A stretch of DNA of 64,000 bases from a virus (taxonomy: Duplodnaviria > Caudoviricetes), in the IMG/VR virus record IMGVR_UViG_3300031853_000001, positions 64,001 to 128,000 of that record; one strand, given 5' to 3'. Position numbers and translations under genes: made by a program. Each line of letters opens with the position of its first letter. The first letter of the stretch is position 1. Below, in pieces: positions 2,559 through 60,356 of this stretch. The notes under the pieces were generated by a model. That model saw only the letters and a list, made by a program, of their open reading frames with translations. It made no database searches and was not told where the DNA came from.

Positions 2559-2588
2559 AAATATAGAAAAGAAAAGGAGTTATTGGTT

Positions 2589-3725
2589 ATGTATTTAACT
2601 AAATTTATGAATGAAAATCTCGATTGGCAGACTAAGCTCGTAGCTGCTCCGTATTTTCTGGAAATTCATTCTGATATTATTGAAGGCGTTGAATATTATA
2701 TTTTGAAATATAATATGATTATGTCTGATATGAGCTTGCCTGAGGTTCAAGAAGCTCGTGGTTCCATCTTTCGCAAGAACGAAGATGGCTATTGGATATG
2801 CGTATGCCATCCGTTTGACAAGTTCTTCAACTATGGAGAATCCCAGTCTGCGGTTAATCGCATTGATTGGTCTACTGCTTCTGTTCAGCAGAAGGTGGAT
2901 GGAAGTCTTATCAAATTTTGGTATGGCAATGATGGTTGGGTGGTCTCTACAAATGGAACAATAGATGCTTACAAAGCAGAGTGCGGCGATACCACCTATG
3001 GCGCGTTGGTAGAGCAGGTTATTGACCGTATTCCTAATTTTTTCAAGATGTTAGACCGCGACTATACTTATATGTTTGAACTAACTTCTCCTTTTAATCG
3101 TATTGTTATACATTATGAAGGGGTTAATTTGTGGTATCTTGGTCGACGCAACATTTCAAATCATATTGAAGACAATGAACCCTTGATGATTAGCGGCATA
3201 CTTCATCCCGAAATATACCTCCATCACTCTCTTTCTGAATGTATTGCGGCCGCACACGAAATGGGCGATGATGAAGAGGGATATGTAGTGTGTGATGCGA
3301 ACTTCAACCGTATTAAAATTAAAGGTGATGAGTATTTACGCCTGCATAAAATGCGTGGCAATGGGCCGCTAAATATCACCCAAGTAATAGAAATGTATCA
3401 GAATGATTCTCTTGATGACTTTATCGCCTACTACCCCGAGTTTAAGTCTTTCGTAGATGAAGTTATTGGACAACTGCGACATTTAATTGATATTGCTGAT
3501 ATTGCTTTTTCTGCTATAATGTCACATTCTCCCGCTACTCGTGCGGATTTCGCACAGTATGCTTGCACTTATATCGGACCGTTAAAGTCTTTCTTGTTCG
3601 CACGACTGGATAACAAGGTTGCAAATGCTACCGAATTTTATAAGGAGATGCGCGCGAAGAGTCTTTCCGCGCACCTTCAAACCATTTTAACTCATAAAGA
3701 AATTGGGATTATGGAGGACGATTAA
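2589..3725 (+). CDS. T4 Rnl1-like RNA ligase
   Basis: KFFNYGE, motif I KVDGSL, FEL, EEGYVV, RIKIK. Confidence 0.9.
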   Translation: MYLTKFMNENLDWQTKLVAAPYFLEIHSDIIEGVEYYILKYNMIMSDMSLPEVQEARGSIFRKNEDGYWICVCHPFDKFFNYGESQSAVNRIDWSTASVQQKVDGSLIKFWYGNDGWVVSTNGTIDAYKAECGDTTYGALVEQVIDRIPNFFKMLDRDYTYMFELTSPFNRIVIHYEGVNLWYLGRRNISNHIEDNEPLMISGILHPEIYLHHSLSECIAAAHEMGDDEEGYVVCDANFNRIKIKGDEYLRLHKMRGNGPLNITQVIEMYQNDSLDDFIAYYPEFKSFVDEVIGQLRHLIDIADIAFSAIMSHSPATRADFAQYACTYIGPLKSFLFARLDNKVANATEFYKEMRAKSLSAHLQTILTHKEIGIMEDD

Positions 3726-9930: not shown

Positions 9931-10832
9931 GAACAATGGGAAATCTTATTGATTTAACAGGAAAAAAATTTGGCCGTTTGACAGTTTTAGAACGAGATTT
10001 TTCTAAAGAAAGAGTATATTGGATTTGTAAATGTCAATGTGGAAATTTAAAATCTATTCGTTCAGATAGTTTAAAAAATGGGGCAATTCAATCTTGCGGA
10101 TGTTTATGGAAAGAACGAATAAGAGAAAATAATAACATAGATTTAATAAATCAACAATTTGGGAAATTACTTGTAAAAGAAAAAATTATTATTAATAATA
10201 AAACTAAATGGAGATGTTTGTGTAATTGTGGAAAAGAAGTTTTTGTTTCTACTGGTAATTTAACAAGTGGGCATACTAAAAGTTGTGGATGCTTACAAAA
10301 AGAAATTGTTCATAATAATAATTTTATTGATTTAACTGGTCAAACTTTTGGAAAATTAAAAGTATTAGAATTAACAGGAAAGAAAAATAATCGTACTATG
10401 TGGCGTTGTCAATGTGAATGTGGAAATATTATTGAAACTCGTGGCACCGATTTACGTTATAGAAAAAATAGAAGTTGTGGTTGTGTTGAATCTAAGGGAG
10501 AACAAATTATTACTAATTTATTAATACAAAATAATGTTTCTTTTGTCACCCAAAAAAGATTTGCTACGTGTAGAAATCCAGAAACCAACGCTCAATTAAT
10601 TTTTGATTTTTATATTAATGATTCTTTCTTGTTAGAGTATGATGGTGTTCAGCATTATCAAACATCAAGCGGATGGAATAATGAACAACATTTAAATTAT
10701 ACTAAGTTGCATGATAATATAAAAAATCAATGGTGTTGTGAAAATAATATACCATTAAAAAGAATTCCTTATTGGGAATTAGATAGTATAACAATAGAAA
10801 ATATAATGGATAATACATTTTTAATCACTTGA
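9927..10832 (+). CDS. free-standing homing-endonuclease-like protein (3x DLTGxxFGxL/CxCxCG repeats + Vsr/DUF559-like nuclease)
   Basis: repeated Cys modules, SKGE, FDFYI..LLEYDGVQH, LKRIPYW; paralogue of 31983-32696 and 48146-49105. Confidence 0.8.
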   Translation: MRTMGNLIDLTGKKFGRLTVLERDFSKERVYWICKCQCGNLKSIRSDSLKNGAIQSCGCLWKERIRENNNIDLINQQFGKLLVKEKIIINNKTKWRCLCNCGKEVFVSTGNLTSGHTKSCGCLQKEIVHNNNFIDLTGQTFGKLKVLELTGKKNNRTMWRCQCECGNIIETRGTDLRYRKNRSCGCVESKGEQIITNLLIQNNVSFVTQKRFATCRNPETNAQLIFDFYINDSFLLEYDGVQHYQTSSGWNNEQHLNYTKLHDNIKNQWCCENNIPLKRIPYWELDSITIENIMDNTFLIT

Positions 10833-45512: not shown

Positions 45513-45564
45513 CTTTTTATAAAAATTTTGTTATAATATTTATGTAAGGTAAGGAAATAAAAAA

Positions 45565-45634
45565 GGGGTAGCGTTAAATAACGAGATGAAGATATTTTAT
45601 ATCGGCCCAATTTAATTCTTATAAAGGTGGTCTT
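45565..45634 (+). promoter_or_regulatory. HEG-leader pseudoknot motif, copy A
   Basis: ggg-GTAGC-hairpin-GAGATGAA-GATA tttta TATC-GG-ccc; loop complementary to ataaag at SD. Confidence 0.6.
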
Positions 45635-46273
45635 ATGAATGGATATATTTATAAAATAATTAATAAAACCAATCAAAAAATATATATTGGTAAAACTTTA
45701 TATTCTATTGAAAAAAGATTTAAAGAGCATTTAAAAGATAGCAACAGAACAGAATATCAAGATAGACCACTATATAAAGCTATAAAAAAATATGGCGCAG
45801 AAAATTTTTCAATAGAATTAGTAGAAATAGCTCCAGTAGAAATATTATCAGAACGAGAAATTTATTGGATAAAATATTATAATAGTTATCATTATGGTTA
45901 TAATGCAACACAAGGTGGAGAAGGTAAATCATTATATGATTACAATTCTATTGTAGAACAATATAAACAAGGAAAACTTATAAAAACATTAGCAGAAGAT
46001 TTTGATTGCGATCCTAGTGTAATTAAAAAAGCTATTAAAAATTCTGGAATAGATACTCATATAAATGAAATTAAATCTAAACAAATTAAAATAAGTGCGT
46101 ATGATATAAAAAATCATCAATTAGTCCAAGAATTTTCTTCTCATAAAGAAGTAGGACAATGGCTTTTTGAAAATGGTTATACTCAATCTCAAAATTGGGA
46201 TAATATTTCTGCATCAATAGGCAGAGTAAAAAATGGTTTACGTCAATCTGCTTATGGATTTAATTGGAAATAA
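45635..46273 (+). CDS. GIY-YIG homing endonuclease with NUMOD1-like C-terminus
   Basis: GYIYKI.N..N.KIYIGKT, R...H, EREIYWI, GYN.T.GG, SAYGFNW. Confidence 0.9.
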   Translation: MNGYIYKIINKTNQKIYIGKTLYSIEKRFKEHLKDSNRTEYQDRPLYKAIKKYGAENFSIELVEIAPVEILSEREIYWIKYYNSYHYGYNATQGGEGKSLYDYNSIVEQYKQGKLIKTLAEDFDCDPSVIKKAIKNSGIDTHINEIKSKQIKISAYDIKNHQLVQEFSSHKEVGQWLFENGYTQSQNWDNISASIGRVKNGLRQSAYGFNWK

Positions 46274-46348
46274 AAGAGAATAAGATAATTAGTAGTCGGG
46301 CAGTCTCCAAAACTGCTAGTCCTGGAGCAAAGCCAGGTTCTCCTGCCA
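46274..46348 (+). tRNA. tRNA-Trp(CCA)
   Basis: gcagt-ctccaaa-actgc, T arm cctgg/ccagg, G73, CCA; weak acceptor and D stems. Confidence 0.75.
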
Positions 46349-46349
46349 T

Positions 46350-46772
46350 TTGGTTCCTCCTGTAAAAATCCTCTTGTTCGCGACAAGAAAAAGGAGTGGC
46401 TGGGGCTAACAATATAAGTAAAGTAGAACTTATATTGCGTGTTCGCCATTAAAGAACGCTGGGAGTTCTCTTACCCCATAAGGTAGTCCGGAATACACAT
46501 AAGATTCGCTCGGTTTCCTAACCAACCGTAAGTCAATAAGATAAATTAGGCGGAAGTCCGCTTCGTTAATGTGGGCCACGAATCCGTGCGTGAATAATAG
46601 GCGGTGAGGTGCCCGATAGGCGTGTCAACCAATAGTAGAAAGAGGCACAAATATTTTGGAGAACGCACAACGCGAGTGCGAACTTTTTATGTTATTCTCG
46701 CGGCGAAATCAAATGGCGGCTCGGATGGATTGAGGCCCGGAAGATGCCAATACGAGAAGAAACCGCGAGATT
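46350..46772 (+). ncRNA. unassigned structured non-coding region
   Basis: GC-richer than flanks, multiple hairpins (e.g. tctcgcgg/ccgcgaga), no credible ORF. Confidence 0.45.
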
Positions 46773-46775
46773 TAA

Positions 46776-46851
46776 TGGAAGGTACCAAAGCGGTTATTGG
46801 GCTGGTCTTATAAACCAGTTGCCGCGGGTTCGATTCCCGCCCTTCCAACCA
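46776..46851 (+). tRNA. tRNA-Ile(TAT)
   Basis: tggaagg/ccttcca, ctggt-cttataa-accag, CCA. Confidence 0.88.
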
Positions 46852-46854
46852 TAT

Positions 46855-46929
46855 GGGGCCGTAGTGTAAAGAACACGCTCGGAAAGCAAGGGCCGAGAAA
46901 ACAAAGGGCAGTACCGCGAGGCTCCACCA
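46855..46929 (+). pseudogene. tRNA-Ala-like RNA with aberrant anticodon loop and T arm
   Basis: ggggcc/ggctcc-ACCA with G3.U70; 10-nt loop aaagcaaggg; T stem mostly unpaired. Confidence 0.55.
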
Positions 46930-47385
46930 TTTAAAGGAGAATACAATGAATAAATACAAATTTGGTCGCATTACTTTTGGGACTATTCTTACAGTAGTAA
47001 TGTTTAGTAACGGTTTTGGAATTAATACTTGGCAATTTTGGGTAGTTTATATTTCTGCTTGGATGATGGTTTTTATGACCTATTTGGAGGATTTTAACGG
47101 ATGATTTATTTTAATATATTTTTAGCCGCACTAAATCTTTTTTGTTTCTATGTTTGCCAAGATAATTTAATATATATTCGTGGATTAAATTTAGCATGTT
47201 GTTTATTATCTAGTTTATGTGCCATTGTTAAAGCCACTGAGAGGAACGTATAATGTTTTTAAAAATTTATTTATACTTAGATATTTTATTTACAATATGG
47301 GCTCTTCCAATTCTTATTATGTATTGTTTTATTCCAAACAAAAGTATTACAGAAGGGTTGAGAGAATGGTTTACTGAGTATTAAT

Positions 47386-47460
47386 GCGTTCGTGGGAGAA
47401 TGGTTTATCCGGAAGTCTGCAAAACTTCATATGCCAGTTCAATTCTGGCCGAACGCTCCA
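47386..47460 (+). tRNA. tRNA-Cys(GCA)
   Basis: gaagt-ctgcaaa-acttc, U73, CCA. Confidence 0.92.
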
Positions 47461-47504
47461 TTTATTATAAATTATAGTAATTCAATTTTAAAATACCTAC
47501 CTCT

Positions 47505-47529
47505 AACGCACGGGAAACCGTGCGTTTTT
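47505..47529 (+). terminator. intrinsic terminator
   Basis: aacgcacgg-gaaa-ccgtgcgtt-ttt. Confidence 0.85.
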
Positions 47530-47586
47530 CTATTTGACTTAATAGAAAATTTATGATATAATAATTTTAGAAAGGAGGAAGATAAA

Positions 47587-48048
47587 ATGACACTTGATGA
47601 ATGTAAGTTAAAAACTATTGAACATATTAATCGTGTTCAATTCTATTTACGTTTTTTTATAGATAGATTAACTGATAAAGGAACTCATCATGATGAAAGT
47701 AAATTAGGTGATATTGAAGCACCTATTTTTGCAAAACATACTGAAAATTTAAGTAATATAAAATTTGGCTCTTCTGAATATAATGAAGAACTAAAACAAT
47801 TAAAAGTAGCTTTAGAACATCATTATAAATATAATCGCCATCATCCAGAATATTTTGGTGAAAACGGAATTAATGGAATGGATTTGACAGATATTCTTGA
47901 AATGCTCGCTGATTGGATGGCAAGTACAGAAAGAACTCAAAATGGAGACATTTTTGAATCTATTGAAATTAATGCTAAACGCTTTAATATAGATAATCAA
48001 TTAAAGCAGATATTAATAAATACTGCTAAACTACTAATTAATAAATAA
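47587..48048 (+). CDS. HD-like protein (DUF5662-like)
   Basis: HDESK, HHY..NRHHPE, M.L.D.LEM.ADW. Confidence 0.7.
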   Translation: MTLDECKLKTIEHINRVQFYLRFFIDRLTDKGTHHDESKLGDIEAPIFAKHTENLSNIKFGSSEYNEELKQLKVALEHHYKYNRHHPEYFGENGINGMDLTDILEMLADWMASTERTQNGDIFESIEINAKRFNIDNQLKQILINTAKLLINK

Positions 48049-48145
48049 AATAAGAGGGAGCAATAAATTGGCCATTTATTGAGATAACGATGCCTTAATC
48101 ATTGAGCTCTTATTCATATAAATATCATTATTAAGGAGTGATAAC
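48049..48145 (+). promoter_or_regulatory. HEG-leader pseudoknot motif, copy B
   Basis: aataagag-GGAGC-hairpin-GAGATAAC-GATG ccttaat CATT-gag-ctcttatt; loop pairs attaagg (SD). Confidence 0.7.
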
Positions 48146-49105
48146 ATGTCAAAATTTATTGATTTAACTGGACAGCAATTTGGAAGATGGTTAGTAAAAG
48201 AGAAATCTAGTAAAAAAACTTCTTATGGACAATATTGGATATGTGAATGCCAATGTGAAAAAAGAACTATCAAGGAAATTTGTGGGCGGTCTTTAAAACA
48301 GGGAGAATCTACAAATTGCGGTTGTTTAAAATATAAACATAAAATAGATTTAACGGGTAAAAAATTTGATTATTTATTATGCTTAAAACCTGGAGAAAGT
48401 ATTAAAAGAAATGATGGACGCTCTAAATCAACTTGGATTTGCAAATGTGATTGTGGTAAGATAATAACAATTCAAACAGAAAGCTTACGAAGTGGTCGAG
48501 CTCATAGTTGTGGTTGTAAAAATGCCGATCTTAGACGAGAAGATTTAACTGGCCAACGTTTTGGTAAACTAATAGCCATTAAGCCCGATTCTTCTCATTA
48601 TACATCTGGTGGGAATGCTTTATCTCGATGGGTTTGTCAATGTGACTGTGGTAATACTATTAGTGTAATAACGCAAGCTTTAAAAAGCGGAAATACTCAA
48701 TCTTGTGGTTGTTTAAATTCTAAAGGTGAAAGCCGTATTAAACAATGGTTATTAAAAAATAATATTATTTTTAAAGCTCAATATATTAATAAAGAAATGA
48801 AATATAATAATGGTAGTTATCCACGTTTTGATTTTGCTATTTTTAATGAGAAAAATAAATTACAATTTTTAATTGAGTATCAAGGCGATATTCATTATAT
48901 CTCTCATAAAAGTGGCTGGAATACTCCAGAAGCTCTGGAAAAAAGACAAAAATATGACGAAGAAAAACGTAATTTATGCAAAACTTTTCATATAAATTTA
49001 ATTGAAATTCCTTATTGGGAATTTGATAATATAGAAAACATTTTAAATCAACTGGTAAAACAGTATAAAATTAATACAGCAAAAATTATGGAAGAGCATG
49101 AGTAA
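48146..49105 (+). CDS. homing-endonuclease-like protein (3x Cys repeats + Vsr/DUF559-like)
   Basis: DLTG..FG, CxCxCG, SKGE, RFDFAI..LIEYQGDIH. Confidence 0.8.
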   Translation: MSKFIDLTGQQFGRWLVKEKSSKKTSYGQYWICECQCEKRTIKEICGRSLKQGESTNCGCLKYKHKIDLTGKKFDYLLCLKPGESIKRNDGRSKSTWICKCDCGKIITIQTESLRSGRAHSCGCKNADLRREDLTGQRFGKLIAIKPDSSHYTSGGNALSRWVCQCDCGNTISVITQALKSGNTQSCGCLNSKGESRIKQWLLKNNIIFKAQYINKEMKYNNGSYPRFDFAIFNEKNKLQFLIEYQGDIHYISHKSGWNTPEALEKRQKYDEEKRNLCKTFHINLIEIPYWEFDNIENILNQLVKQYKINTAKIMEEHE

Positions 49106-49114
49106 GGAGAAAAT

Positions 49115-50060
49115 ATGATTACGAATAACGGGGAAATTATTGAAGTAATTCCAGATTTAGAAACCCCAGAAGAAATTGCTAGAAGTTTTTTTCTTGACAG
49201 AGATATTAAACTTGTAGAAAATAAGATTGAAGATTTGAAGCAAGTTCTACTTTCTTTAACTCACAATAATGATAGATTACAGCGTCAATTTAATGAACTA
49301 TATGAAGAAAAATGGGCCGATACTACACTTCAAAATATGAAGAAAGAGTTAGAACAAGTAAAGCAAAATATGTATCGTGGTTTTCCTATTACTGAAGCGG
49401 AAGAAAAGAAAATTAATAATTGGATTTTAAAGCACGATGAAGAAATTCATAATAATCCTAATCATTATCATGGTGTTTCTGGTGGAGGTTATGAATACTC
49501 TTTTCACCCTACTGGTTTAGGCACGATTGGTTATTGTATCTGTGGTATTTGTAAAAGTAAAGCCATCCGTGAAGCTGGTGAAAAATGGTGGGAACATTTA
49601 AAAAATAATAACGGATATATTGAATTTGGAGATTTTGGATAATGAATATTTTTAAAAAAAGAAACGCACAAAACTACCTTCTCCCACCAGAAAAAGAGGA
49701 AAAAATAAAAAATTTACTAGATTCAGCACCTAGATTGCTTTGGCCGCACCCAAATGATGACGTAGAATTTATAATCCCTTTATTTAATGCAGAAAAGCAT
49801 TACAAACATTTAAAAAAGATTATATGGAAAAATAGTAGGAGGTAATTATGGGGGATGAATATAAATATACCTATAAAGAACAAGCCGAACATTTTAAAAA
49901 ATTAGTTCATCAATTAGAAAAAGAAATTAAAGAATTAAATAAAGAAAATGATGAATTACATATAATTATTAATGATTTAAAAGATAAAATTACATATCAT
50001 TGTAATCCTGAAGATACTTATAGAGAAGATTTTACTTTTAATCATTTGACTTTTAATTAA
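49115..50060 (+). other. three hypothetical CDSs (49115-49642, 49642-49845, 49848-50060)
   Basis: coupled ORFs; first has GGGY.YSF.PTGLG. Confidence 0.55.
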
Positions 50061-50136
50061 AATTCTGCTATAATAATATTGTAAAAAAGAAAAGCCCTAG
50101 TCCAGGGCTGACCAAATGAAAAGGAGATTTAAAATT

Positions 50137-51756
50137 ATGACTAATTTCAATCAGGTAGTTTCTAATTTTGTTGCTTCTCAGAATTCTTACCCTGTTCGTA
50201 AGAATATTAGCAAGGCTCACGCTTCTTCCTTTATCAATGCGATGAAGCAAGAGGATAACTTCAAGTATACCGAAAATGGTGCGGTAGCCAAGAAGTCTAC
50301 TATGTCCAAGCTATACGACCTATTTGCACTTGGCGGCTCCTATCGTTCTCGCACCGAGAGCGATTGTATCGTTCTTTTTAAGAACGCATATCAGGAGAAC
50401 CCTGCCTATGCTCTAAAGTGCCTATGGTATCTTCGTGATATTCTTGAGGGTCAGGGTGAGCGTCGTTTCTTCCGTGTTTGCTTAAAGTGGCTTGCTACCT
50501 ACGACAAGCAGGCTGTACTACGCAACCTTGATACCATTGCCCGTGATGGTTTCGGCCGCTGGGATGATCTGTTTGTCCTATTTGACACTCCTTGCGAGGA
50601 TGCTGTTATGAAGCTGATTGAAAATCAGCTAGTTAGCGACCTAAAGGCGTATCAGGCCGGTGCCGCAGTATCTCTACTTGGCAAGTGGATTCCTTCCGAG
50701 AACTCCTCTTCTGCCAAGACTAAGCATAATGCTCGTCGCATTATTGCTGCTCTTCACGTATCTCCTCGTGAGTATCGTAAGACTCTATCTGCTCTGCGTG
50801 AGCGTATCCACGTTGTAGAGCGTCTTATGTCCCAGAACCGTTGGGACGAGATTGATTTCTCTCATCTACCTTCTCGTGCTGGCCTGATCTATCGCAAGGC
50901 TTTCGAGCGTCGCGATATGATTCAGCAGAAGTATCGTGAGTTCGCGAAGGATACTTCTACCAAGGTAAATGCTGGTAAGCTATATCCTTACGACGTTGTG
51001 CGTGAGGCACAGAAGGTTATGCACTGTGATTCCTACTGGAATTATGGTTCTCGCGAACCTCGCCTAGACGACACCCAGCGTCTAATGGTTAATAAGTATT
51101 GGGATAACCTACGTAATGTTTTCCCTGCGGGTGAAAACTTTAACGCTATGGTTGTTTGCGATACTTCTAGCTCTATGCTAAATGGAGCAAGCAATACTGC
51201 TTCTCCTATGCAGGTTGCGGTATCTCTGGCAATGTATGCCGCAGAGCGTGCCAACGGTCCTTTCAAGAACCATTATATCAGTTTCAGCCGTCAGGCTCGT
51301 CTGGTAGAGGTTTTTGGTGCGGACTTCTGCGACAAGGTATCTCGTATCATCCGCTCCAATGTGTGCGAGAATACCAATCTTGAAAGTGTTTTCGACCTAG
51401 TGCTAAATACTGCTATGCAGTATCGCCTACCTCGTAACGCTATGCCTAAGACTCTTGTAGTCGTGTCCGATATGGAAGTAGATCGTTCTGCGGGTATTTC
51501 CAGTCATAAGGAAACCTTTATGGAGTCTATGCGTCGTAAGTGGGCTCAGAAGTGCGGCAACCGCTATGAGTTCCCTGACGTAGTGTTCTGGAATGTGTCT
51601 GCTCGCAACGATACTTTCCTAGACGATCCTAAGAGTGGCATTACTTACGTGTCTGGCTGCAGTCCTGTACTGTTTGAGCAGATTCTGTCTGGTAAGACGT
51701 CTATTGACCTTATGCTAGACAAGCTTAACGCTCCTCGCTACAAAGACATCTACTAA
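50137..51756 (+). CDS. DUF2828-family protein (TROVE/Ro60-like helical domain + vWA)
   Basis: TENGA...ST...DLF, LRD...GQGER, GRWDDL, SL..KW.P, MIDAS-like DTSSSM, TNL..VF, SDME, FWNV, VSG.SP; own promoter (50046) and terminator. Confidence 0.85.
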   Translation: MTNFNQVVSNFVASQNSYPVRKNISKAHASSFINAMKQEDNFKYTENGAVAKKSTMSKLYDLFALGGSYRSRTESDCIVLFKNAYQENPAYALKCLWYLRDILEGQGERRFFRVCLKWLATYDKQAVLRNLDTIARDGFGRWDDLFVLFDTPCEDAVMKLIENQLVSDLKAYQAGAAVSLLGKWIPSENSSSAKTKHNARRIIAALHVSPREYRKTLSALRERIHVVERLMSQNRWDEIDFSHLPSRAGLIYRKAFERRDMIQQKYREFAKDTSTKVNAGKLYPYDVVREAQKVMHCDSYWNYGSREPRLDDTQRLMVNKYWDNLRNVFPAGENFNAMVVCDTSSSMLNGASNTASPMQVAVSLAMYAAERANGPFKNHYISFSRQARLVEVFGADFCDKVSRIIRSNVCENTNLESVFDLVLNTAMQYRLPRNAMPKTLVVVSDMEVDRSAGISSHKETFMESMRRKWAQKCGNRYEFPDVVFWNVSARNDTFLDDPKSGITYVSGCSPVLFEQILSGKTSIDLMLDKLNAPRYKDIY

Positions 51757-51772
51757 GGTTAAGTATAAATTT

Positions 51773-51798
51773 GAGATGGAGAAATCCATCTCTTTTTT
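51773..51798 (+). terminator. intrinsic terminator
   Basis: gagatgga-gaaa-tccatctc-tttttt. Confidence 0.85.
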
Positions 51799-51851
51799 AT
51801 TTGACTTATTATAAAAATTTTGATATAATATTTATAGAAAGGATGAGGAAA

Positions 51852-52208
51852 ATGAACTATTACATTTATTTGGATGATGTGCGCGAAGATGATACTTGGT
51901 TTCGACAGCATTTGAATACCGAGCATTGGATTCCTTGTGTTGTTCGTTCTTATGAGGAAGTAATTCATATTCTTGACCATATGCAAGATTATATGGACAA
52001 GGATGAAGTGCTTATTCTCGACCTTGATCACGACCTTGGCGAAACTGAAGATGGTTACAATGAACTCGCGCACACAGGATATGATGTTTGTAAGTGGATG
52101 ATAGAAAATCATTTCCCTGCCTGCTATTTTCACATTCATAGCATGAACGCTAGTGGTTCTGCGAATATGCGACAACTTCTTACTCACTATGGCTATAAGG
52201 AGATTTAA
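51852..52208 (+). CDS. cyclic-phosphate-processing receiver-domain protein
   Basis: YLDDVR, LDLDHDLG, TGYDV.KW, IHSMN..G..NM. Confidence 0.8.
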   Translation: MNYYIYLDDVREDDTWFRQHLNTEHWIPCVVRSYEEVIHILDHMQDYMDKDEVLILDLDHDLGETEDGYNELAHTGYDVCKWMIENHFPACYFHIHSMNASGSANMRQLLTHYGYKEI

Positions 52209-52667
52209 TATGCTTTTAGATGAAAATAATGATAAAGAAAAGCTTTATAAAATTATTGATTTTCTAATAGAACAAATTAAAAATCTGCAAAGAACTAATT
52301 CTGAAATAAATGAACTTTTGAAAGAATCAATTTTTAGAAAATAATTTCTTGACTTTCTCCAAAAATTCTGATATAATTATTATAGTAAAAGGAAAGGAGA
52401 ATAACATAGTGGAAAAGTACAGACCTATTTATAGAGATATTCACGATTGGGCAATTTTGGACGAACGAACTATTCATGATTTTTCTGAAAACGAAACTCC
52501 TATTCACGTGGTAGAAGTTCTTATTGGAACTCTTCATTATGAGCATATAGATTTTAATCAGCATTATACTGAACATCGCACTCCTATTATTCGTTGGCTA
52601 ACTCGTAATGAATATGATTATCTTTGCGCGAATGAAGGCACCGTAATTTGGTAAGAAAGGATTAAAT

Positions 52668-53318
52668 ATGCGTAAGTACGAAAAAATTGAAACTCTATTT
52701 GCCCGCGATATGGAAGGCACTAAAAAGCTAATGCCGGGTATTTTTCGTGACCCGACTATTGAGTTTCTTCAGTATTGTGATTGGGTATGGACTGAGAAGA
52801 TAGACGGCACTAATATCCGCGTGTATTGGGATGGCCATAAGGTTACTTTTAGTGGCCGTACCGATAACGCAGTTATTCCCGCAGAACTTATCACTCGTCT
52901 AAATGAACTTTTTAGCGGTGAGACTAATGCTCAAATTTTTGAGCAGGCTTTTGGCGATAAGGAAGTTATTCTATTCGGTGAGGGCTATGGTCGTAAAATT
53001 CAGAAGGGCGGTGGCAAGTATATTGCCGATGGCGTTGATTTTATTCTATTTGACGTTCTAATTGGTGAGAATTATCAAGAACGTGAATGGGTTGAAAGCA
53101 CCGCCAAGATGTTTGGTATTAAGGTCGTCCCAATTGTGGGTGGCGGTTCGCTTGAAGACGCTGTAAATTATGTTAAGAAGCACCCTAATTCGATAATTGC
53201 GGAAGATGTACGAGAAATGGAAGGTATTGTATGTAGACCCGCTGTTGAGCTACGTGACCGTCGTGGTAATCGTATTATTGTAAAAATTAAGTGGGAAGAT
53301 ATAAAGGAGCTTATTTAA
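52668..53318 (+). CDS. Rnl2-like RNA ligase
   Basis: motif I EKIDGTN, LFGEGYG, FDV, EGIV, KIK. Confidence 0.85.
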   Translation: MRKYEKIETLFARDMEGTKKLMPGIFRDPTIEFLQYCDWVWTEKIDGTNIRVYWDGHKVTFSGRTDNAVIPAELITRLNELFSGETNAQIFEQAFGDKEVILFGEGYGRKIQKGGGKYIADGVDFILFDVLIGENYQEREWVESTAKMFGIKVVPIVGGGSLEDAVNYVKKHPNSIIAEDVREMEGIVCRPAVELRDRRGNRIIVKIKWEDIKELI

Positions 53319-53530
53319 TATGAATGGATTTTATAAAGTAAAAGTTAATAATTATGGAGAAAAACCCGAAGAATGGTCTGGTGTTGTTGTGGGTAACGAT
53401 GAAGGTGACCTTATGAACAAGGTTATGAAATATTATGGTCACGATAATGTAGAACAAATAAGCTTTTGGTTTGGAGAATTTTATGATAATGATGTCGTAG
53501 AATTTGACGATTTTAAGGATTGTCCATTAT

Positions 53531-53559
53531 TTGACTTTCACTAAAAATTTTGATATAAT
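53531..53559 (+). promoter_or_regulatory. sigmaA-type promoter of tRNA-Met/ncRNA unit
   Basis: TTGACT-17-TATAAT. Confidence 0.85.
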
Positions 53560-53590
53560 ATTTATACAAGGTGAGGGAACTCACCAATAA

Positions 53591-53663
53591 TGCGGAGTGG
53601 CCAAGTAGTTAAGGCAATTGGCTCATACCCAATAGATCAAGAGTGCAAATCTCTTCTCCGCAA
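53591..53663 (+). tRNA. tRNA-Met(CAT), CCA not encoded
   Basis: tgcggag/ctccgca, attgg-ctcatac-ccaat. Confidence 0.85.
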
Positions 53664-54640
53664 CTCAGCGCAAAAGGAGAGCAAGCTGTTACTCCGAGTG
53701 AACTTATCGGCGCTATATAAATAGGAAAAACCAATTAAATACAGTATTTTAAATGAAGTAATAACTGCCATAGAAGTCATGACCTATGATAGAAGACACT
53801 TCATTTAAAGCAACCGGTTGATTTGCGCAATTAAGTCGTTAGAAGCGACTAGAGGGAGAGACCCTGACTAATAAGCAAGTCCATTCTATGAAATGGTAAT
53901 GTCGAAAACCAATTAGTGTAAAGTAGCATACCTTACCAATAATAAGGAGAATCAGCGTAGCGAACTGAATTGGCGTACTGGAATTTGTTGTCCAGAGTAG
54001 GCATAAATCGAGCAGCAATGCGGTAATACCCGTGCACAGGTAGCTAAATTACCCTGGCTCACCAATTATTTTAGAAGATAAGACTTGAGCTTATCTCTGG
54101 CTATGAAGCGAGTGCCGTGCCGCAGATGCGGTGCTTAGTGGAGCCTATGTGGGTTTAGCGTGTCAACCACAATGCGGATAGGTATTAACCGAAAGAAAAC
54201 ACGCTTTAATGGCGCTTTATCCCAAGCCTTTTCGCGGCGGCGCTATAAGTACCAAAAGGTATTATTTAATACTGAGCGTGAAACTAAGAGGGAACTGAAG
54301 GCTGTGCCAAGGTGAAAGGCTAACAGTCCGAGTGATGACCGTTGAAGCCATTCGGTGCATAGTGGTGCCGTTAAAGCGATGGATGCATACATCGTCCACT
54401 TCATTTAATGACTTGATGCTTATCAAGCTAGAACTATCGAGGACGTGTGCGGTGGGAATGTTTGAGATTAGATGTAGATAGTTTAAGTATAGACTTGCGG
54501 TGCAAGCCTAATCAACTGGCGTTCCGCGGCCAGAATACTTTGCGGGCTTTATTGATTCGGGAGGAAGTGTCCGTAGATGAACTTCTCGGAGTAATCGCCA
54601 TAATCGAATCAGCCGTGCGGCTGGCATAATGCCGCAATAT
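53664..54640 (+). ncRNA. about 1-kb structured non-coding region with embedded tRNA-like domains
   Basis: no credible ORF; many hairpins; cloverleaf-like 53907-53975 (loop ccaataa) and ACCA-ending unit 54010-54064. Confidence 0.55.
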
Positions 54641-54760
54641 GGCACCGTAGTGCAAAGGTAAGCACGCCGGCCTTTGTGAGATAGGGTAAAGTGCAGTTCA
54701 ACTCTGCCGTCTCGCACCACAAGCCGGTGATGCTGGGTTCAAGTCCCGCCGGTGCTTCCA
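54641..54760 (+). tRNA. tRNA-Glu(TTC) interrupted by 44-nt mini-tRNA insert (54676-54719)
   Basis: removing the insert gives ccggc-cttt|caa-gccgg; CCA. Confidence 0.85.
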
Positions 54761-54763
54761 AGC

Positions 54764-54856
54764 AAAGAAAAGAGAAGCATAAATCTGATCAATTTATGAG
54801 ATAATGATGCCCTAACATCAAGTCTTTTCTTTAATAAATATTATTAGGGTGATATT
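54764..54856 (+). promoter_or_regulatory. HEG-leader pseudoknot motif, copy C
   Basis: aaagaaaaga-GAAGC-hairpin-GAGATAAT-GATG ccctaa CATC-aag-tcttttcttt; loop pairs ttaggg. Confidence 0.7.
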
Positions 54857-55498
54857 ATGAGTAGAAAATTAAGCCAACAACAATTTGAAGAAAGAGTATA
54901 TAAGACATTTGGAGATAAATATTCTGTAGTAAGTGAATATTTAGGTCAAAGAAAACCTATAACTTTACATTGTAATATACACAATATTGATTTTACAGCT
55001 ACTGCTGAATGTTTCATGAGACAAGCTAATGACACTCGCTCAAGTTGTCCAGAATGTACTGCAGAAAAACGAAGACAAGAAAATAATTCTGTAAAATGTG
55101 AATGTGCTTATTGTCATAAAATTTTTTATTTGTCTCAATCTAAAGCTAATAATTCTAAAAGTGGATTACATTTTTGTTGTAGAGAACATAAAGATTTAGC
55201 TCAAAGAATAGATAGCGGTGAACAATTCGATATAATGCGCCCGCCTCATTATAATGCAATAAAAAATGATACAGGAACAATTGGGACATATCGTATTTTA
55301 GCTTTTAGAAATTATCCCCATAAGTGCGCTGTTTGTAATTGGGACGAAGATGAAGATATATTACAAGTTCATCATATAGATGAAAATAGACAAAATAATT
55401 CTTTAACCAATTTAATTATTTTATGTCCTAATTGTCACGCAAAAATAACTTATGGGAAATATAAATTAATTGATCGAAAACAAATTATATTAAAATAA
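54857..55498 (+). CDS. HNH endonuclease
   Basis: CAVC...LQVHHIDENRQNN...NL..LCPNCH. Confidence 0.9.
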   Translation: MSRKLSQQQFEERVYKTFGDKYSVVSEYLGQRKPITLHCNIHNIDFTATAECFMRQANDTRSSCPECTAEKRRQENNSVKCECAYCHKIFYLSQSKANNSKSGLHFCCREHKDLAQRIDSGEQFDIMRPPHYNAIKNDTGTIGTYRILAFRNYPHKCAVCNWDEDEDILQVHHIDENRQNNSLTNLIILCPNCHAKITYGKYKLIDRKQIILK

Positions 55499-55511
55499 AA
55501 TTAAATAGGAG

Positions 55512-55995
55512 TTGTTGTATATGGCAATCCACGATAGAGCTTATACTCGTACAAAAAGTTGGACTAAGGCACTTCGTAAATACCACATTGATAGAGATAT
55601 TTCCGCAGGTAAATGGTGGCCTATGTACAATAATCTCCATCAATATGCTGATAATAAAATTCATTGTTCCTGTCCAATGTGTAGTGCTAAAACCAACAAC
55701 AAAAAGCGCAATGGGCCTCGTGGATGGGAACCTTCAAAAAATTGGTCTATTTCAGATCAAAAGAAAATTAATAGTATGGAAAGTCAAGTTGAGGAATTAA
55801 ATGATAACTTGGAATAATTTTAAATGTGATTTTCCGTATCATCGTATAGATAATTTTGGCGATTATAGTGAAATGTGGTGCGGACGATTAGAAAAATATA
55901 TTTCTAATTGTAATGATTGCCCATTTAACCAAAAAGAAAAAGAGATGCGTGAAGACCCCAATAATTATCAAAAATGGCTAAAATTACATAATTGA
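55512..55995 (+). other. two small Cys-containing hypothetical CDSs (55512-55817, 55801-55995)
   Basis: coupled ORFs; HCSCPMC motif. Confidence 0.55.
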
Positions 55996-56325
55996 CTTTT
56001 TCTAAAAATTATAGTATAATATATATAGTTAAGGGAAAGGAGATAAATTATTTATGAATTATCTGGATGATTTTCTTGTTGGCCCGCAGAGCGATGAATA
56101 TGATTGGTATTATGAAAATGAAATTCCTGATCCAGAATGGGACAGGAGATGTCGAGGATTGGATAAACTAATACTTGACAAGTAATAAAAATTATGTTAT
56201 AATATTTATAGAAACAAGGAAAGGATGATAATTGTGCGCTTTACGACTCGCAAGTCTCGTACTGTGTTTTCTTCTTCTTGGAGTCGCCGCAAGCAGGCAG
56301 AGATGCTTGATGAGTGGCAGATTTA

Positions 56326-56870
56326 AACGCCAGATTAGTTCAGCAAATTGCGGCCAATATTAATGGCGTTACCGCATTCCTTACTTATAGTTTGGAAGTA
56401 CAAAGGTTTTGAGTAATTGAACCGGTTAAATCAATGCTTGGCGCCGGGTCCACCCTACTGGGCTCGTAAACAAATCGCGGCCAATGGTGAGAAGCGCCAC
56501 CGCTATAAAGGAATGCCCCACGACGGGTTTCGTAAGTTATGTTGAAAGATATATACTAGCTTGGAATAAGCACACGCAAGAGTTGCTATAATGCGCAACA
56601 GAAAAATCCTTTATAATAGGTTAACCTACGGTCGGATGGGAGACGATAAACCCCTTTCAAGCAGTCTCTTTGGCGGTTGGACTTAAAATAAACCACCTAG
56701 GTCAGCAGGACTGATAACTATATATTATAGAAGCAATCTCTTTTATAATATATAGAAAACGCAGCCATAATCCTGTCGTTGCGGCGAACAACGATAAAAA
56801 TCGCTAGTAGCCCAGATACTTACTTAAAGGGTTTTCGCCGCGTTAATCTTGGTATCGGATTGCGGTTGTA
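56326..56870 (+). ncRNA. unassigned structured non-coding region
   Basis: long-range closing stems such as gcattcctt/aaggaatgc and gggttt/aaaccc; no ORF. Confidence 0.45.
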
Positions 56871-56871
56871 T

Positions 56872-57006
56872 CCACGCGTGGTGCAAATGGCGAGACACAG
56901 CGGACTTACGTAGGCCCAGTGGCTTGTTGGAGAGCAACACTCCTTCCTACGACCAAAATCCGCGACGCAAGATACATTGCTGGTTCAAATCCAGTCGCGT
57001 GGACCA
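56872..57006 (+). tRNA. tRNA-Leu(TAA) interrupted by 47-nt mini-tRNA insert (56909-56955)
   Basis: removing the insert gives gcgga-ctta|aaa-tccgc; long variable region, CCA. Confidence 0.87.
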
Positions 57007-57009
57007 TAT

Positions 57010-57086
57010 GAGTTTGTAACCGAATTGGCATAGGTACTTGGCTCAAACCCAAGGTTTTGTGGGTTCGACTCCCACCAAACTCACCA
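57010..57086 (+). tRNA. tRNA-Leu(CAA), short variable region
   Basis: cttgg-ctcaaac-ccaag, CCA. Confidence 0.88.
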
Positions 57087-57154
57087 AAATTTATATTTCG
57101 AGTGCGAATTATAATAATTTGAATTCGATGTTATTACTTATCTAATGTAAGGAG

Positions 57155-57925
57155 GTGGTTAATATGCCACTAAAATATAAATTAGAAGAAGTATTAACAG
57201 AAAATTCTCCTGTTACTAGAAAAGTTTTAAAAGATTATTTAGCAAAATATAATGTTTTAGAATATAAATGTGCAATATGCGATAACAGAGGAGAATGGAA
57301 TGGAGTTTCTTTAACATTACAAATAGACCATATTAATGGTATAAGAGATGATAATAGAAAAGAAAATCTTCGTTGGCTATGCCCGAATTGTCATTCTCAA
57401 ACTGATACTTTTACTGGGAAAAATAAAACTAAAAAAGAAGTTGTTAATTTTACAGTAGAAGAAGCTATTAAAGCATTACAACAAACTGAAAATGTAAATC
57501 AAGCAACCAAATTAATCGGCTGTGCGCAAGGTGGAGCAAATTGGATTAGAGTAAATGATATTAAAAAAAAGTATGGAATTATTCAATCTGGGGATTTAAA
57601 GAAAGAAGAAAAACAAAAGTTTAAAGAAAATCATATTAATGCGAAACCAATTAACTCTATTAAATTATGTAAAAAATGCGGCCGTCCGTTATCGACAAAA
57701 GATGCTGAATACTGTCAAACTTGTATACACGAATTTCAACGAAAATGTGAATGGCCTTCTCGCGAAGAACTTAAAAAATTAATTCGCTCTACACCTTTTT
57801 TACAAATAGGTAAAAAATATAATGTAAGCGATAATGCTGTAAGAAAATGGTGCTTAAATTATGGTTTGCCATCTAAAAAGATGGAAATAAAAGCAATTTC
57901 AGATGAAGATTGGAATAATATTTGA
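57155..57925 (+). CDS. HNH endonuclease with C-terminal HTH
   Basis: CAIC...LQIDHING...DNRKENLRWLCPNCHSQT; VSDNAVRKW. Confidence 0.9.
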   Translation: MVNMPLKYKLEEVLTENSPVTRKVLKDYLAKYNVLEYKCAICDNRGEWNGVSLTLQIDHINGIRDDNRKENLRWLCPNCHSQTDTFTGKNKTKKEVVNFTVEEAIKALQQTENVNQATKLIGCAQGGANWIRVNDIKKKYGIIQSGDLKKEEKQKFKENHINAKPINSIKLCKKCGRPLSTKDAEYCQTCIHEFQRKCEWPSREELKKLIRSTPFLQIGKKYNVSDNAVRKWCLNYGLPSKKMEIKAISDEDWNNI

Positions 57926-58185
57926 CTTTCTTTTAAAATTATAGTATAATAATTATAGTAAAGAGAAAGGATTTATATGAAAGCAAAGTGTAAATGCAGT
58001 TGTATTTGGGACTATTCTTGTAATGATATTAAAGTTGAACCTGACGGTCACGATGTTGTAGTTACTTTATATTGCCCTAATTGTGGGCATCAGCTTTTTG
58101 CTTATAGCCCTAATGACCTAATAGAAAAAGTATCTCCTTCTTATGTTGATACTCATTGTTTTTCAAAATACACTTGGAATAATAC

Positions 58186-58214
58186 TTGACTTTTAGCAGA
58201 AAATCTGCTATAAT
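58186..58214 (+). promoter_or_regulatory. sigmaA-type promoter directly feeding scaffold RNAs #3/#4
   Basis: TTGACT-17-TATAAT, 12 nt upstream of the first stem. Confidence 0.85.
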
Positions 58215-58226
58215 AAATATGTAAGA

Positions 58227-58297
58227 ACGACGGTAGCAGCAGTTTTAATAATAAATATTTTTAATGTAAAAATCCTTATTAGCAAAAATTCCGTCGT
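58227..58297 (+). ncRNA. ACAGCAA-scaffold RNA #3 (variant GCAGCAG)
   Basis: acgacgg-taGCAGCAG...ccgtcgt. Confidence 0.55.
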
Positions 58298-58311
58298 GCT
58301 GATTGAAATTA

Positions 58312-58379
58312 AGGCGGACACAGCAAATAACTATTTAAGCAATAATCTTTTAAATTATGTAGCTAAAATAACCGCCTAG
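58312..58379 (+). ncRNA. ACAGCAA-scaffold RNA #4 carrying a Lys(UUU) anticodon stem-loop
   Basis: aggcgg-acACAGCAA...ataat-cttttaa-attat...ccgcct-ag. Confidence 0.75.
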
Positions 58380-58386
58380 AATTTAT

Positions 58387-58464
58387 GTGCCCGTGGCGCA
58401 ACTTGGCAGACGCGCTACACTTAGGATGTAGATTTTCAGAGTTCAAATCTCTGCGGGCGCACCA
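58387..58464 (+). tRNA. tRNA-Leu(TAG), short variable region
   Basis: ctaca-cttagga-tgtag, CCA. Confidence 0.88.
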
Positions 58465-59117
58465 GTCACTCCTCGCTAATGCGACAAGTCGCGTTAACAT
58501 TTGTTTGTTAGCTACTGTTGGAAAACGCGACTTTAAAATACAAAGAAGCAACAGTAAATAGCTCAAACCGTATGTTGAGACTATCGTAACTATCACATTC
58601 TAGGAGTCCTGACTCGTTATTGGACTTAATACTCAACGGAGTTGGCGCCCAAACAAATCCTAGAATGTATATGGTATCAAGTGAAGAGCCTTCTCGTGGC
58701 GATACTGATTTCGACTAATCTTCACAAAATATTAAAGCGTGCTTTTCCTTGCTGTACACTTGTTGAAAAGCCAAATGTTCCCGTATGAGAATACGCAGGT
58801 TATACCTGTATATTGAAATCCCATAAGACGTCACAAAGGAATGGATAGAAATTACAATGGGCCATTCAGAAAGTAGAACACTTTAATATTTGACTTTTTC
58901 TGAAAATTCTGGTATAATAATTACAGAAACAAGGAAAGGACAAAATAATGAAGATACTTGTTGTAAATAAAGATGAGAAAATACAATTAATTCATCTCCT
59001 AAAACAAGAAATACGCAAACCTGGTTGTCCTTATGAATTACTTACTATTTTAGAAAAACTTAGTCCTGGAGACTATGAATATCTTTTTACAACTATGAAA
59101 TAAAAGAAAGGAAGTAG

Positions 59118-59693
59118 ATACTCCATTTAATAAAATGGTTGAACCAAGTGAAGAAGAGTTAACCACTCTGCTTGGGCTATCTAAATAACAGCCATACGAT
59201 TTAGCGGGATACTACTAAATCGCGGCCACGAAATCAGTAATGATTAGTGATAAGGAGAAACTCTTAATGTTAAGGATAGGCGCTTGGTTATTCGCTAACA
59301 AAAACTTGGCTCCTTGCGGCGTCGTAATAGAAAGCAGATTGAGCAGATTTGCCGAACCCAGAAAAGACTTTAAGGTGGCAGTTAAAGGGACTCTGGGAAA
59401 GCCATAAGACGTTTGGTGTCGTTGAAACCTAGAAATAGGATATAAGCAAGGTTCACAGATAAAGTAGCCTAAAACGACAATGATTCTAATAAGTAATTTA
59501 ATTAGAATAATGTGCTGAATGGTTTAGGTGAAATTTGGGAGTAATCAGTCTCCCCGTTGCTAGCCAAAAGGCAGGATGAAGAAGTTAAAGGGTCGCTACC
59601 TTTGGCTCAGCCTTCATCTTCAACGTGGTTGAATATGTTAGAAGGATAATACAAGTACGGCGAAGGTCGCAACGGTTTTATTAAATGGGGTAT
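59118..59693 (+). ncRNA. 576-nt large structured RNA, ROOL-like
   Basis: 23-bp terminal stem atactccatttaataaaatggtt/aacggttttattaaatggggtat; size and tRNA-cluster context fit ROOL; family not verified. Confidence 0.6.
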
Positions 59694-59700
59694 TTGCCCT

Positions 59701-59795
59701 AGACTTTAAGGTAGCATTGGAGTAATTAACCAATGAGACAAAGATGCTCCTACATCGGCTTAAAGTTTAAAATATAATCATAGGAGTGATTTAAT
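59701..59795 (+). promoter_or_regulatory. HEG-leader pseudoknot motif, copy D
   Basis: agactttaag-GTAGC-hairpin-GAGACAAA-GATG ctccta CATC-GG-cttaaagttt; loop pairs taggag (SD). Confidence 0.72.
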
Positions 59796-60356
59796 ATGCC
59801 AAGGAAAATTGATTTAACAGGAAAAATTTTTGGAATCATACAGGTAGATTCGCCAGCACCAAGTCAATCTGGTAAAACGTATTGGAATTGTCATTGTACA
59901 ATTTGTAATACTAAAAAAGTAATTCAAGGTTGCGCCTTAAAAAATGGTTCTATTAAAACTTGCGGTTGTGGTTGTTCTTTTCATAAACAAAATACTTCAA
60001 AAATTTGTGAAATTTGTGGAAAAGAATTTATTCCAATAAAATTTGGCGGTGCTAGAAAATATTGTTATGAATGTTCTCCGCAAGAAGGCTCAGAAACAGA
60101 TAAGCGCACAGTTATAAGACGAGCTTTAAAAAAGATGCTAGTTGATTATAAAGGTGGAAAATGTGAACGATGTGGATATAATAAATGTTTACGCGCATTA
60201 GAATTTCATCATTTAAATCCGTCTGAAAAAGATTTTGGAATTTCTGGATGTATAACTAAAAATGTAGAAGAATTAAAAAATGAAGTTAATAAATGTATTT
60301 TAGTTTGTTCTAATTGTCACGCGGAAATTCATGAAGAATTAGACGAGGCCCGTTAG
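59796..60356 (+). CDS. HNH endonuclease
   Basis: GGKCERCGY....ALEFHH..P..K.F...KC.LVCSNCH.E.H; stop lies inside tRNA-Asn. Confidence 0.9.
   Translation: MPRKIDLTGKIFGIIQVDSPAPSQSGKTYWNCHCTICNTKKVIQGCALKNGSIKTCGCGCSFHKQNTSKICEICGKEFIPIKFGGARKYCYECSPQEGSETDKRTVIRRALKKMLVDYKGGKCERCGYNKCLRALEFHHLNPSEKDFGISGCITKNVEELKNEVNKCILVCSNCHAEIHEELDEAR

Follow-up and report, generated by a model that had tools for sequence, protein, structure and literature searches.

The question raised by this locus is whether the sequences in front of four homing endonuclease genes of a phage are one and the same RNA element, and what such an element would do. The window, that is, the whole stretch of 64,000 nucleotides analysed here, corresponds to bases 64,001-128,000 of IMGVR_UViG_3300031853_000001, a 180,932-bp virus record of IMG/VR (Duplodnaviria; Caudoviricetes) rated complete. 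An earlier note on this DNA had claimed that the four genes share a leader RNA in which a loop is complementary to the gene's own Shine-Dalgarno (SD) sequence. This leader, with its self-complementary P2 loop and its anti-SD loop, is an RNA family uncatalogued in Rfam 15. In our reading, to which we give a probability of about 0.75, it is a portable leader RNA that acts in cis as a translational brake on free-standing homing endonuclease genes.

The shared anatomy is present at all four sites and can be refined to P1 - GNAG - [C-P2-G] - AGAYRAN - P3 (GAUR, a loop of 5-7 nt, YAUY) - (R)RG - P1', a three-way junction of the helices P1, P2 and P3. Three copies are strong (48049-48114, 54764-54832 and 59700-59769) and one is degenerate (45565-45608), each lying directly before a homing endonuclease gene on the plus strand. 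A covariance model, R2, was built from 18 sequences, comprising 15 copies in other phage contigs and copies 2-4 of the window; copy 1 was not in the training set. R2 retrieved copies 3, 4, 2 and 1 with 79.5, 78.8, 63.4 and 32.4 bits, respectively (E 4e-6 in the genome for copy 1), and nothing else in the 181-kb genome at E ≤ 1. With copy 3 as its only training sequence, a model retrieved copies 2 and 4 (E of about 1e-7) and, weakly, copy 1. Five occurrences of the core word GAGAYRANGATR were counted in the window, compared with 0.26 expected, and four of them are the claimed sites. The fifth, at 26776, was rejected by inspection, as it lacks the AGC, P3 and P1 context, and R2 gave no match there.

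Copy 2 begins one base past the stop codon of an upstream DUF5662 gene and consists of P1 (48049-56/48107-14), J12 GGAG, P2 (48061-81) with the loop palindrome UGGCCA, J23 AGAUAAC, P3 (48089-48103) with the loop CCUUAAU (48093-99) and J31 GAG. Copy 3, which begins 4 nt past the CCA end of the tRNA at 54641-54760, has P1 at 54764-73/54823-32, J12 GAAG, P2 at 54778-98 with the loop palindrome UGAUCA, J23 AGAUAAU, P3 at 54806-19 with the loop CCCUAA (54810-15) and J31 AAG. Its minimum free energy (MFE) fold contains the same junction, together with the fourth hairpin described below. The MFE fold of copy 4 is likewise the same (z-score -2.6), with P1 (59700-10/59759-69), J12 GUAG, P2 (59715-35; loop AG-UAAUUA-A), J23 AGACAAA, P3 (59743-56; loop CUCCUA at 59747-52) and J31 GG. 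In the degenerate copy 1, the corresponding parts are P1 (45565-67/45606-08), J12 GUAG, P2 (45572-83), J23 AGAUGAA, P3 (45591-45603; loop UUUUA) and J31 GG.

The covariance model search, which the earlier note had proposed as a check, retrieved copies across uncultured phage contigs. Scanning IMG/VR with a pattern containing the J12 word GUAGC yielded 21 stretches, 17 of them real by the model, and more copies were obtained via GAAGC and GGAGC. A metagenome scan contributed 13 further contigs, and searches of whole records added copies chosen by no pattern. The resulting 48 matches represent 43 distinct leader sequences, in uncultured rumen and gut phage contigs. A core-only pattern (GAGAYAANGATG-N5-8-CATC) retrieved at least 119 stretches from IMG/VR, and the model accepted 1 out of the 80 tested. 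One strict pattern gave 98 stretches in 185,579 prokaryote genomes, none of those tested being real: 74 out of 80 had no match at E ≤ 0.01 and the other six scored 23-27 bits. Two of these six, as well as two suspect contigs from yak metagenome-assembled genomes, proved false on inspection. Megablast of 3.8 kb against GenBank phages gave no match, and blastn of the 97-nt leader against 50,697 GenBank phage records (11-nt words) returned only chance matches of 22-32 nt, blastn being insensitive for such a motif.

The 43 distinct sequences bear out the claim of a conserved, covarying leader RNA. In their alignment, which was fitted to the model, pairing cells reached 89%, compared with 64% in shuffles. 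Changes on both sides were found for 20 of the 21 pairs, no shuffle reached the observed covariation score, and slid controls fell to 28-45%. Rfam 15 gave no match to the four sites at the gathering score and none at E ≤ 10 over 14.6 kb; with 121-nt pieces and the laxest filters, only chance small nucleolar RNA or CRE rows of 6-16 bits were retrieved. The int-alpA RNA (RF02996) resembles the leader as a small phage-associated candidate RNA, but its model matches no copy: there were no matches at E ≤ 10 in the whole 181-kb genome and none in the 121-nt pieces. Full-text literature searches found no description of such a homing endonuclease leader RNA, and the paper reporting 224 motifs does not mention endonucleases.

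Helices and loops vary freely among the 43 sequences, and the near-invariant letters lie in the junction (G11, A13, G14, the C15-G55 pair, A56, G57, A62 and G81). Binding pockets and tertiary cores typically show such a distribution, and it could indicate a gated switch, in which a small molecule or a phage or host protein binds the junction and sets the docking of the SD lock, as in a riboswitch or a protein-controlled element rather than a constitutive brake. We consider this unlikely. A fifth, divergent leader in the same genome (173,282-173,377), preceding a GIY-YIG gene at genome position 173,378, keeps the architecture with other junction letters (UAG, UGAUAA and U), which argues against a strict ligand pocket; it has a P1, the loop word UAGCUA in P2 and a 9-nt P3 loop matching GGAGUUGAA. 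Moreover, the genes concerned are selfish nucleases and not metabolic genes, and no Rfam riboswitch matched. No conserved pairing that competes with P1, P3 or the SD hairpin was seen, this statement resting on one candidate checked by eye on three copies and not on a systematic search. That candidate, a pairing between J23 and the linker as an alternative conformer, is present in copies 2 and 3 and absent in copy 4, and hence is not conserved. Nothing found here supports the suggestion of the earlier note that the module is riboswitch-like, protein-binding or self-cleaving.

What varies from copy to copy is matched by the ribosome-binding site. In 40 out of 45 non-redundant instances, a perfect Watson-Crick complement to the whole P3 loop follows within 45 nt of the model match, with 24 different P3 loops among them. 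In these 40 instances the distance from the junction to the complement is 13-25 nt (mean 19.4), and the ATG follows 5-12 nt after the complement. Loops compared with the leaders of other instances found a complement in only 79 of 1838 cases (4.3%), and shuffled loops in 4.8%. Within the window, the pairs CCUUAAU/AUUAAGG, CCCUAA/UUAGGG and CUCCUA/UAGGAG (copies 2, 3 and 4) are perfect over the full loop, so this claim of the earlier note stands for three copies, whereas in copy 1 the match is weaker (UUUUA/UAAAG). The register of the pairing relative to GGAG differs among copies, as in UAGGAG, AUUAAGG, GAAAGG and UAUUGG, which indicates that complementarity itself is the selected feature. For the same reason, column-wise counts of loop-loop pairs are misleading, and we used complement searches per instance with their controls; a model that includes the SD hairpin (R3) recovers the copies but aligns this hairpin by the word AGGAG.

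The complement is directly flanked by a stem of 4-8 bp in 34 of the 40 instances (at least 4 bp in 35), compared with mostly 0-2 bp in slid controls. Hence the SD partner of the P3 loop forms the apical loop of a fourth hairpin (P4), and the remainder of the SD lies in the 3' strand of P4. P4 stems covary, for instance UAUUUCU/AGAAAUA, UAUAC/GUAUA and AUCC/GGAU. In copy 2, P4 (48123..48143) has a 7-bp stem (48123-29/48137-43) and the loop AUUAAGG (48130-36), which exactly complements the P3 loop; the SD AAGGAGUGAU is shared between the P4 loop and the 3' strand, and the ATG is at 48146. P4 of copy 3 (54837..54856) also has a 7-bp stem (54837-43/54850-56), with the loop UUAGGG (54844-49) and the ATG at 54857, and that of copy 4 (59776..59791) has a 5-bp stem (59776-80/59787-91), with the loop UAGGAG (59781-86) and the ATG at 59796. 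The sequestration proposed by the earlier note is supported by the full loop complements and the P4 stems. The predicted loop/SD pairing, there called a pseudoknot, would more fittingly be termed a fully complementary intramolecular kissing-loop complex of P3 and P4, and not a loop paired with a single strand. P4, as the hairpin that holds the SD partner, and the palindromic loop of P2, there called the variable hairpin, are two features beyond the earlier note.

Sequestration of the SD in an RNA structure upstream of a homing endonuclease open reading frame (ORF) has precedents. Structures that sequester the ribosome-binding site (RBS) control I-TevI, I-TevII, I-TevIII, segB and Aeh1 mobE (Edgell, Gibb and Belfort 2010, PMC2988022). 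As in those T-even leaders, a cis RNA structure hides the SD of a selfish nuclease gene within a foreign transcription unit, presumably limiting translation in both cases, and the brake that we propose extends this precedent (PMC2988022). The T-even hairpins are simple and gene-specific, share no sequence and embed a late promoter (PMC2988022), in contrast to this conserved family of 43 distinct sequences, which combine a three-way junction with a kissing lock and a palindromic loop and have no demonstrated internal promoter. A temporal switch of the T4 kind would operate here if the lock formed only on long early or tRNA-array transcripts and a later promoter, between P1' and P4, gave a short message without P3 that is freely translated. 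This mechanism is established for I-TevI, segB and mobE (PMC2988022), and some linkers carry -10-like words, such as TATAAATA at 48117-24 and TATAAT at 59773-78. In several other copies, the linker has only 3-6 nt, too short for a promoter, and no promoter word is common to the copies. P4 alone would, in addition, still bury half of the SD. We regard a temporal switch as quite unlikely.

The five instances without a full loop complement are informative as to the target of selection. In four of them (L186, L304, L258:1530 and L138:3592; L numbers denote loci from IMG/VR and metagenomes), there is no ORF behind the leader, and the fifth is the degenerate copy 1. The relatives L158 and L179 likewise have neither complement nor ORF. 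Since the loop/SD match is lost once the ORF is gone, translation appears to be the selected target. This bears on the possibility of an RNA-processing or stability element, whose 5' structure would mark where the tRNA or ROOL is cut from the nuclease message or block a 5'-to-3' exonuclease, with SD pairing being secondary; a self-cleaving version is included here. The position of the leader is compatible with such a role. P1 begins 1-6 nt past the encoded tRNA CCA end in many copies, elsewhere 12 nt past the ROOL RNA or one base past a stop codon, and just behind the promoter sequence TTGACT-N17-TATAAT in L154, L156 and the 173-kb copy, close to the presumed start site. Copy 1, downstream of the same promoter sequence at 45509-45537, lies about 20 nt past the likely start site. 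The fold would thus stand at the 5' end of the mature message. The topology of flaviviral exonuclease-resistant RNAs, a three-way junction with a loop pairing downstream, also resembles that of the leader. Nevertheless, the loop/SD match is the strongest covariation, no known Rfam ribozyme family matched, and the junction strands misfit the hammerhead core by inspection. A primary role in processing or stability is thus distinctly improbable, the two roles not being mutually exclusive.

The genes behind the leaders of the window belong to three nuclease families, as the earlier note had proposed. Copy 1 precedes a GIY-YIG homing endonuclease gene (45635..46273, plus strand; PF01541, 3.6e-9; PHROG 7168/314 'homing endonuclease') and copy 2 a DUF2726-type homing endonuclease gene (48146..49105, plus strand; PF10881, 1.2e-5; PHROG 374/9084/7140). 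Copy 3 is followed by an HNH homing endonuclease gene with DUF723 and HNH domains (54857..55498, plus strand; PF01844, 1.1e-6), and copy 4 by an HNH-type gene (59796..60356, plus strand) retrieved with PHROG 2255 'HNH endonuclease' (3.9e-27), PHROG 3106 and, weakly, PF01844 (17-22 bits). All ATG ORFs of at least 60 aa in the genome were also scanned for a G-rich word shortly ahead of the start codon that a hairpin loop complements over its full length, the P4 flank being at least 5. Only four genes were retrieved, those of copies 2, 3 and 4 and the GIY-YIG gene at genome position 173,378, all of them homing endonuclease genes. Elsewhere, the genes behind leaders encode HNH, HNH_3 with NUMOD4, GIY-YIG with NUMOD1, DUF2726-type, DUF7487 and other PHROG endonucleases, with one exception. 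In this exception (L140:1272-2339), the leader heads a family-2 glycosyltransferase gene, and its loop CCAUAA matches UUAUGG before the start.

The leader is therefore specific to homing endonuclease genes of several unrelated families, and it travels with them. In a 184-kb relative, the tRNA (99% identity) and the downstream gene (80%) are both conserved, with neither leader nor nuclease between them. In L168, the leader of copy 3 is identical and the HNH gene is different. Two other contigs carry the leader that follows ROOL unchanged, and two more carry it with differences of 1-3 bases; across these contigs, three different nucleases are found behind it. Considering the shared leaders with different nucleases and the joint absence in the relative, leader and ORF form a cassette in which ORFs are swapped behind a constant leader. 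At the place of leader 3, an extra tRNA is found in the 184-kb relative, followed by about 250 nt that are ORF-free and structured-looking (L455:1610-1950; G001:C1:112,227-112,567) and may be another non-coding RNA (ncRNA).

P2 adds a second kind of self-complementarity. A perfect palindrome of at least 6 nt is present in the apical loop of 30 out of 36 distinct P2 hairpins, compared with 15% in shuffles. Seven different hexamers were found (UAAUUA, UAGCUA, UGAUCA, UCAUGA, UCGCGA, UGGCCA and AGGCCU), and the usual loop has 9 nt, with 2 nt before the palindrome and 1 nt, often A, after it. Otherwise identical stems carry paired substitutions in the hexamer, for example UCAUGA/UCGCGA and UAAUUA/UCAUGA, and the two central positions covary even though they are unable to pair within one loop. 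Only pairing between two molecules explains this, and the covariation suggests a homodimer of two leaders joined tip to tip, like that formed by the dimerization initiation site (DIS) of HIV-1. The DIS (SL1) is a kissing loop whose palindrome differs by compensatory pairs between subtypes. P2 shares with it the 9-nt layout of 2 nt, a 6-nt palindrome and 1 nt, as well as a self-complementary hexamer kept by compensatory changes. It differs from the DIS in being located in a phage mRNA leader instead of a viral genome, in having many AU-rich, weak palindromes, and in that its dimer is predicted only.

A more speculative extension is a self-recognizing RNA switch, which we put forward only tentatively and regard as doubtful. 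Each nuclease paralogue would have a private P2 palindrome as its address, and the homodimer would read the level of its own message or recruit an RNase III- or Rop-like factor, tightening or releasing the lock. If true, this would be dosage-sensing translational control via mRNA dimerization, and we know of no such control described for bacterial or phage messages. A related proposal, that palindromes differ within a genome beyond chance as a private code, was rejected: in a count made by hand, about 20 within-contig pairs included 2 identical ones, which does not differ significantly from the roughly 4-5 expected.

Palindromic hexamers that look like restriction sites, together with conserved words and the different nucleases behind a near-identical post-ROOL leader, could also point to a DNA-level element, with sites for protein binding, recombination or nuclease recognition guiding cassette exchange. 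This is highly improbable. The covariation of P1, P2, P3 and P4 includes G-U pairs and is strand-specific, seven palindromes cannot serve one DNA-binding protein, and loop/SD complementarity is meaningless in duplex DNA.

According to the translational brake reading, the first ~70 nt of the message would fold into the three-way junction of P1, P2 and P3, followed ~13-25 nt past the junction by P4, with the 5' half of the SD in its loop and the 3' half buried in its stem. With the junction as a scaffold, the P3 loop (6-7 nt) would be brought onto the P4 loop and pair with each of its bases, so that the kissing complex locks the ribosome-binding site. Translation of the nuclease would then be kept low despite heavily transcribed tRNA/ncRNA arrays or strong early promoters, by a brake that is strong but leaky. 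The 5'-terminal P1 probably shields the message from 5' decay, and two leaders probably pair through their P2 palindromes. We found no evidence for a ligand, self-cleavage or an internal promoter. Fully complementary loop-loop complexes are known from ColE1 RNA I/RNA II and TAR/TAR*. The leader resembles these in its two hairpins with 6-7-nt loops, every loop base being paired with the partner, and differs in that both hairpins belong to one molecule on a junction scaffold and that the target loop is the ribosome-binding site.

Several observations weigh against this reading. Copy 1 is weak, with a P1 of 3 bp, no clear P4 and a loop that pairs with UAAAG (45622-26) only via G-U, and pairing is also poor in a few other instances. 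By nearest-neighbour energies, the kissing helix is modest (-4 to -8.6 kcal/mol, compared with about -10 to -12 for SD/anti-SD), which makes attenuation likelier than a full block. The conservation of the junction is partly due to ascertainment, as the search patterns fixed letters, although copies found by the model only keep these letters too. UAAUUA, one of the two commonest P2 hexamers, has a free-duplex energy of only -0.4 kcal/mol, the others reaching -5 to -9, and dimers of weak palindromes may need Mg2+, stacking or a protein, or may not form in those copies. The contigs of one RNA sequencing run cover ROOL and some genes, and none extends over the leaders. Finally, six other nuclease genes or domains in the genome (one being a GIY-YIG domain inside a longer frame) have no leader, and a nuclease gene thus does not generally need one.

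Nuclease genes elsewhere in the genome show different arrangements, among them a long, plain hairpin over the RBS at genome 157.8 kb, other hairpins at window 57165 and an intron-like context at 150.5 kb. At this last locus (L350; G000:C1:150,250-150,700), a frame containing a TOPRIM-like DADA word is broken by ~200 nt of structured-looking sequence, behind which a GIY-YIG gene follows; the arrangement probably represents a group I intron that carries its own endonuclease, together with a simple RBS hairpin. At 9937-10832 of the window, a DUF2726-type homing endonuclease gene (PHROG 374/9084) is located among protein-coding genes and has no leader, its start overlapping the end of the upstream ORF.

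The phage was present in bovine gut or rumen DNA runs in a search of sequencing runs. Its tRNA/ncRNA island extends over 40-63 kb of the window and contains 17-21 tRNA genes, the drum RNA (54098-54209) and the ROOL RNA (59120-59688), which ends 12 nt before copy 4. HEARO (now the IsrB omega RNA), ROOL and drum resemble the leader as structured RNAs adjoining a nuclease gene, ROOL and drum sharing its island. HEARO is a guide RNA for its nuclease, whereas the leader serves unrelated nuclease families and pairs with the RBS of its own gene; there was no match between them. The tRNA before leader 3 is 117-120 nt long, matches the Rfam tRNA model at 54641-54757 and received no ARAGORN call; L005 and L168 have this long form in front of the leader as well. 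A Ro60/TROVE-like 'RNA-binding protein' (DUF2828, DUF7788 and VWA; PHROG 850) and two RNA ligases are encoded in or near the island (50116-51756, 52668-53318 and 2583-3725), and they may constitute an RNA repair or RNA quality-control set. The SD sequences of the phage are of the long GGAGGUGAU type.

The early-type promoter block TTGACT-N17-TATAAT is repeated with conserved flanks at 55990-56020 and 45509-45537 of the window and at 173,253-173,281 of the genome. Dozens of copies of this block were found in three related phage records of ~180 kb, and two leaders lie directly behind one. The phage of the window uses the standard genetic code. In many leader-carrying contigs, TAG is read as a sense codon (L248, L291, L133, L217, L137, L244, L154, L162, L174 and L163). 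In these, GIY-YIG and HNH frames have 9-109 aa under table 11 and 168-281 aa with TAG=Q, the GIY-YIG frames extending from 15-60 aa to ~220-280 aa. TAG in L162 and L163 aligns with CAA (Gln) of the related gene in L174, and in L154 with the Gln of the usual IGQT word.

Homing endonucleases need enough expression to spread and not so much as to harm the phage. To our knowledge, the controls described until now are one-off hairpins in T-even phages. Conserved and portable, this RNA module serves at least four nuclease families that are unrelated to one another and occurs in many uncultured phages of rumen and gut, TAG-recoded ones included. As a family of structured RNAs it is new, and its covariation is very clean. 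A programmable lock of the ribosome-binding site could be modelled on its compact natural design and re-targeted by changing the P3 loop and the SD loop together. In phage metagenomes, the leader is a practical marker by which cassettes of free-standing homing endonucleases can be annotated. It also raises a testable case of mRNA self-dimerization in prokaryotic gene control.

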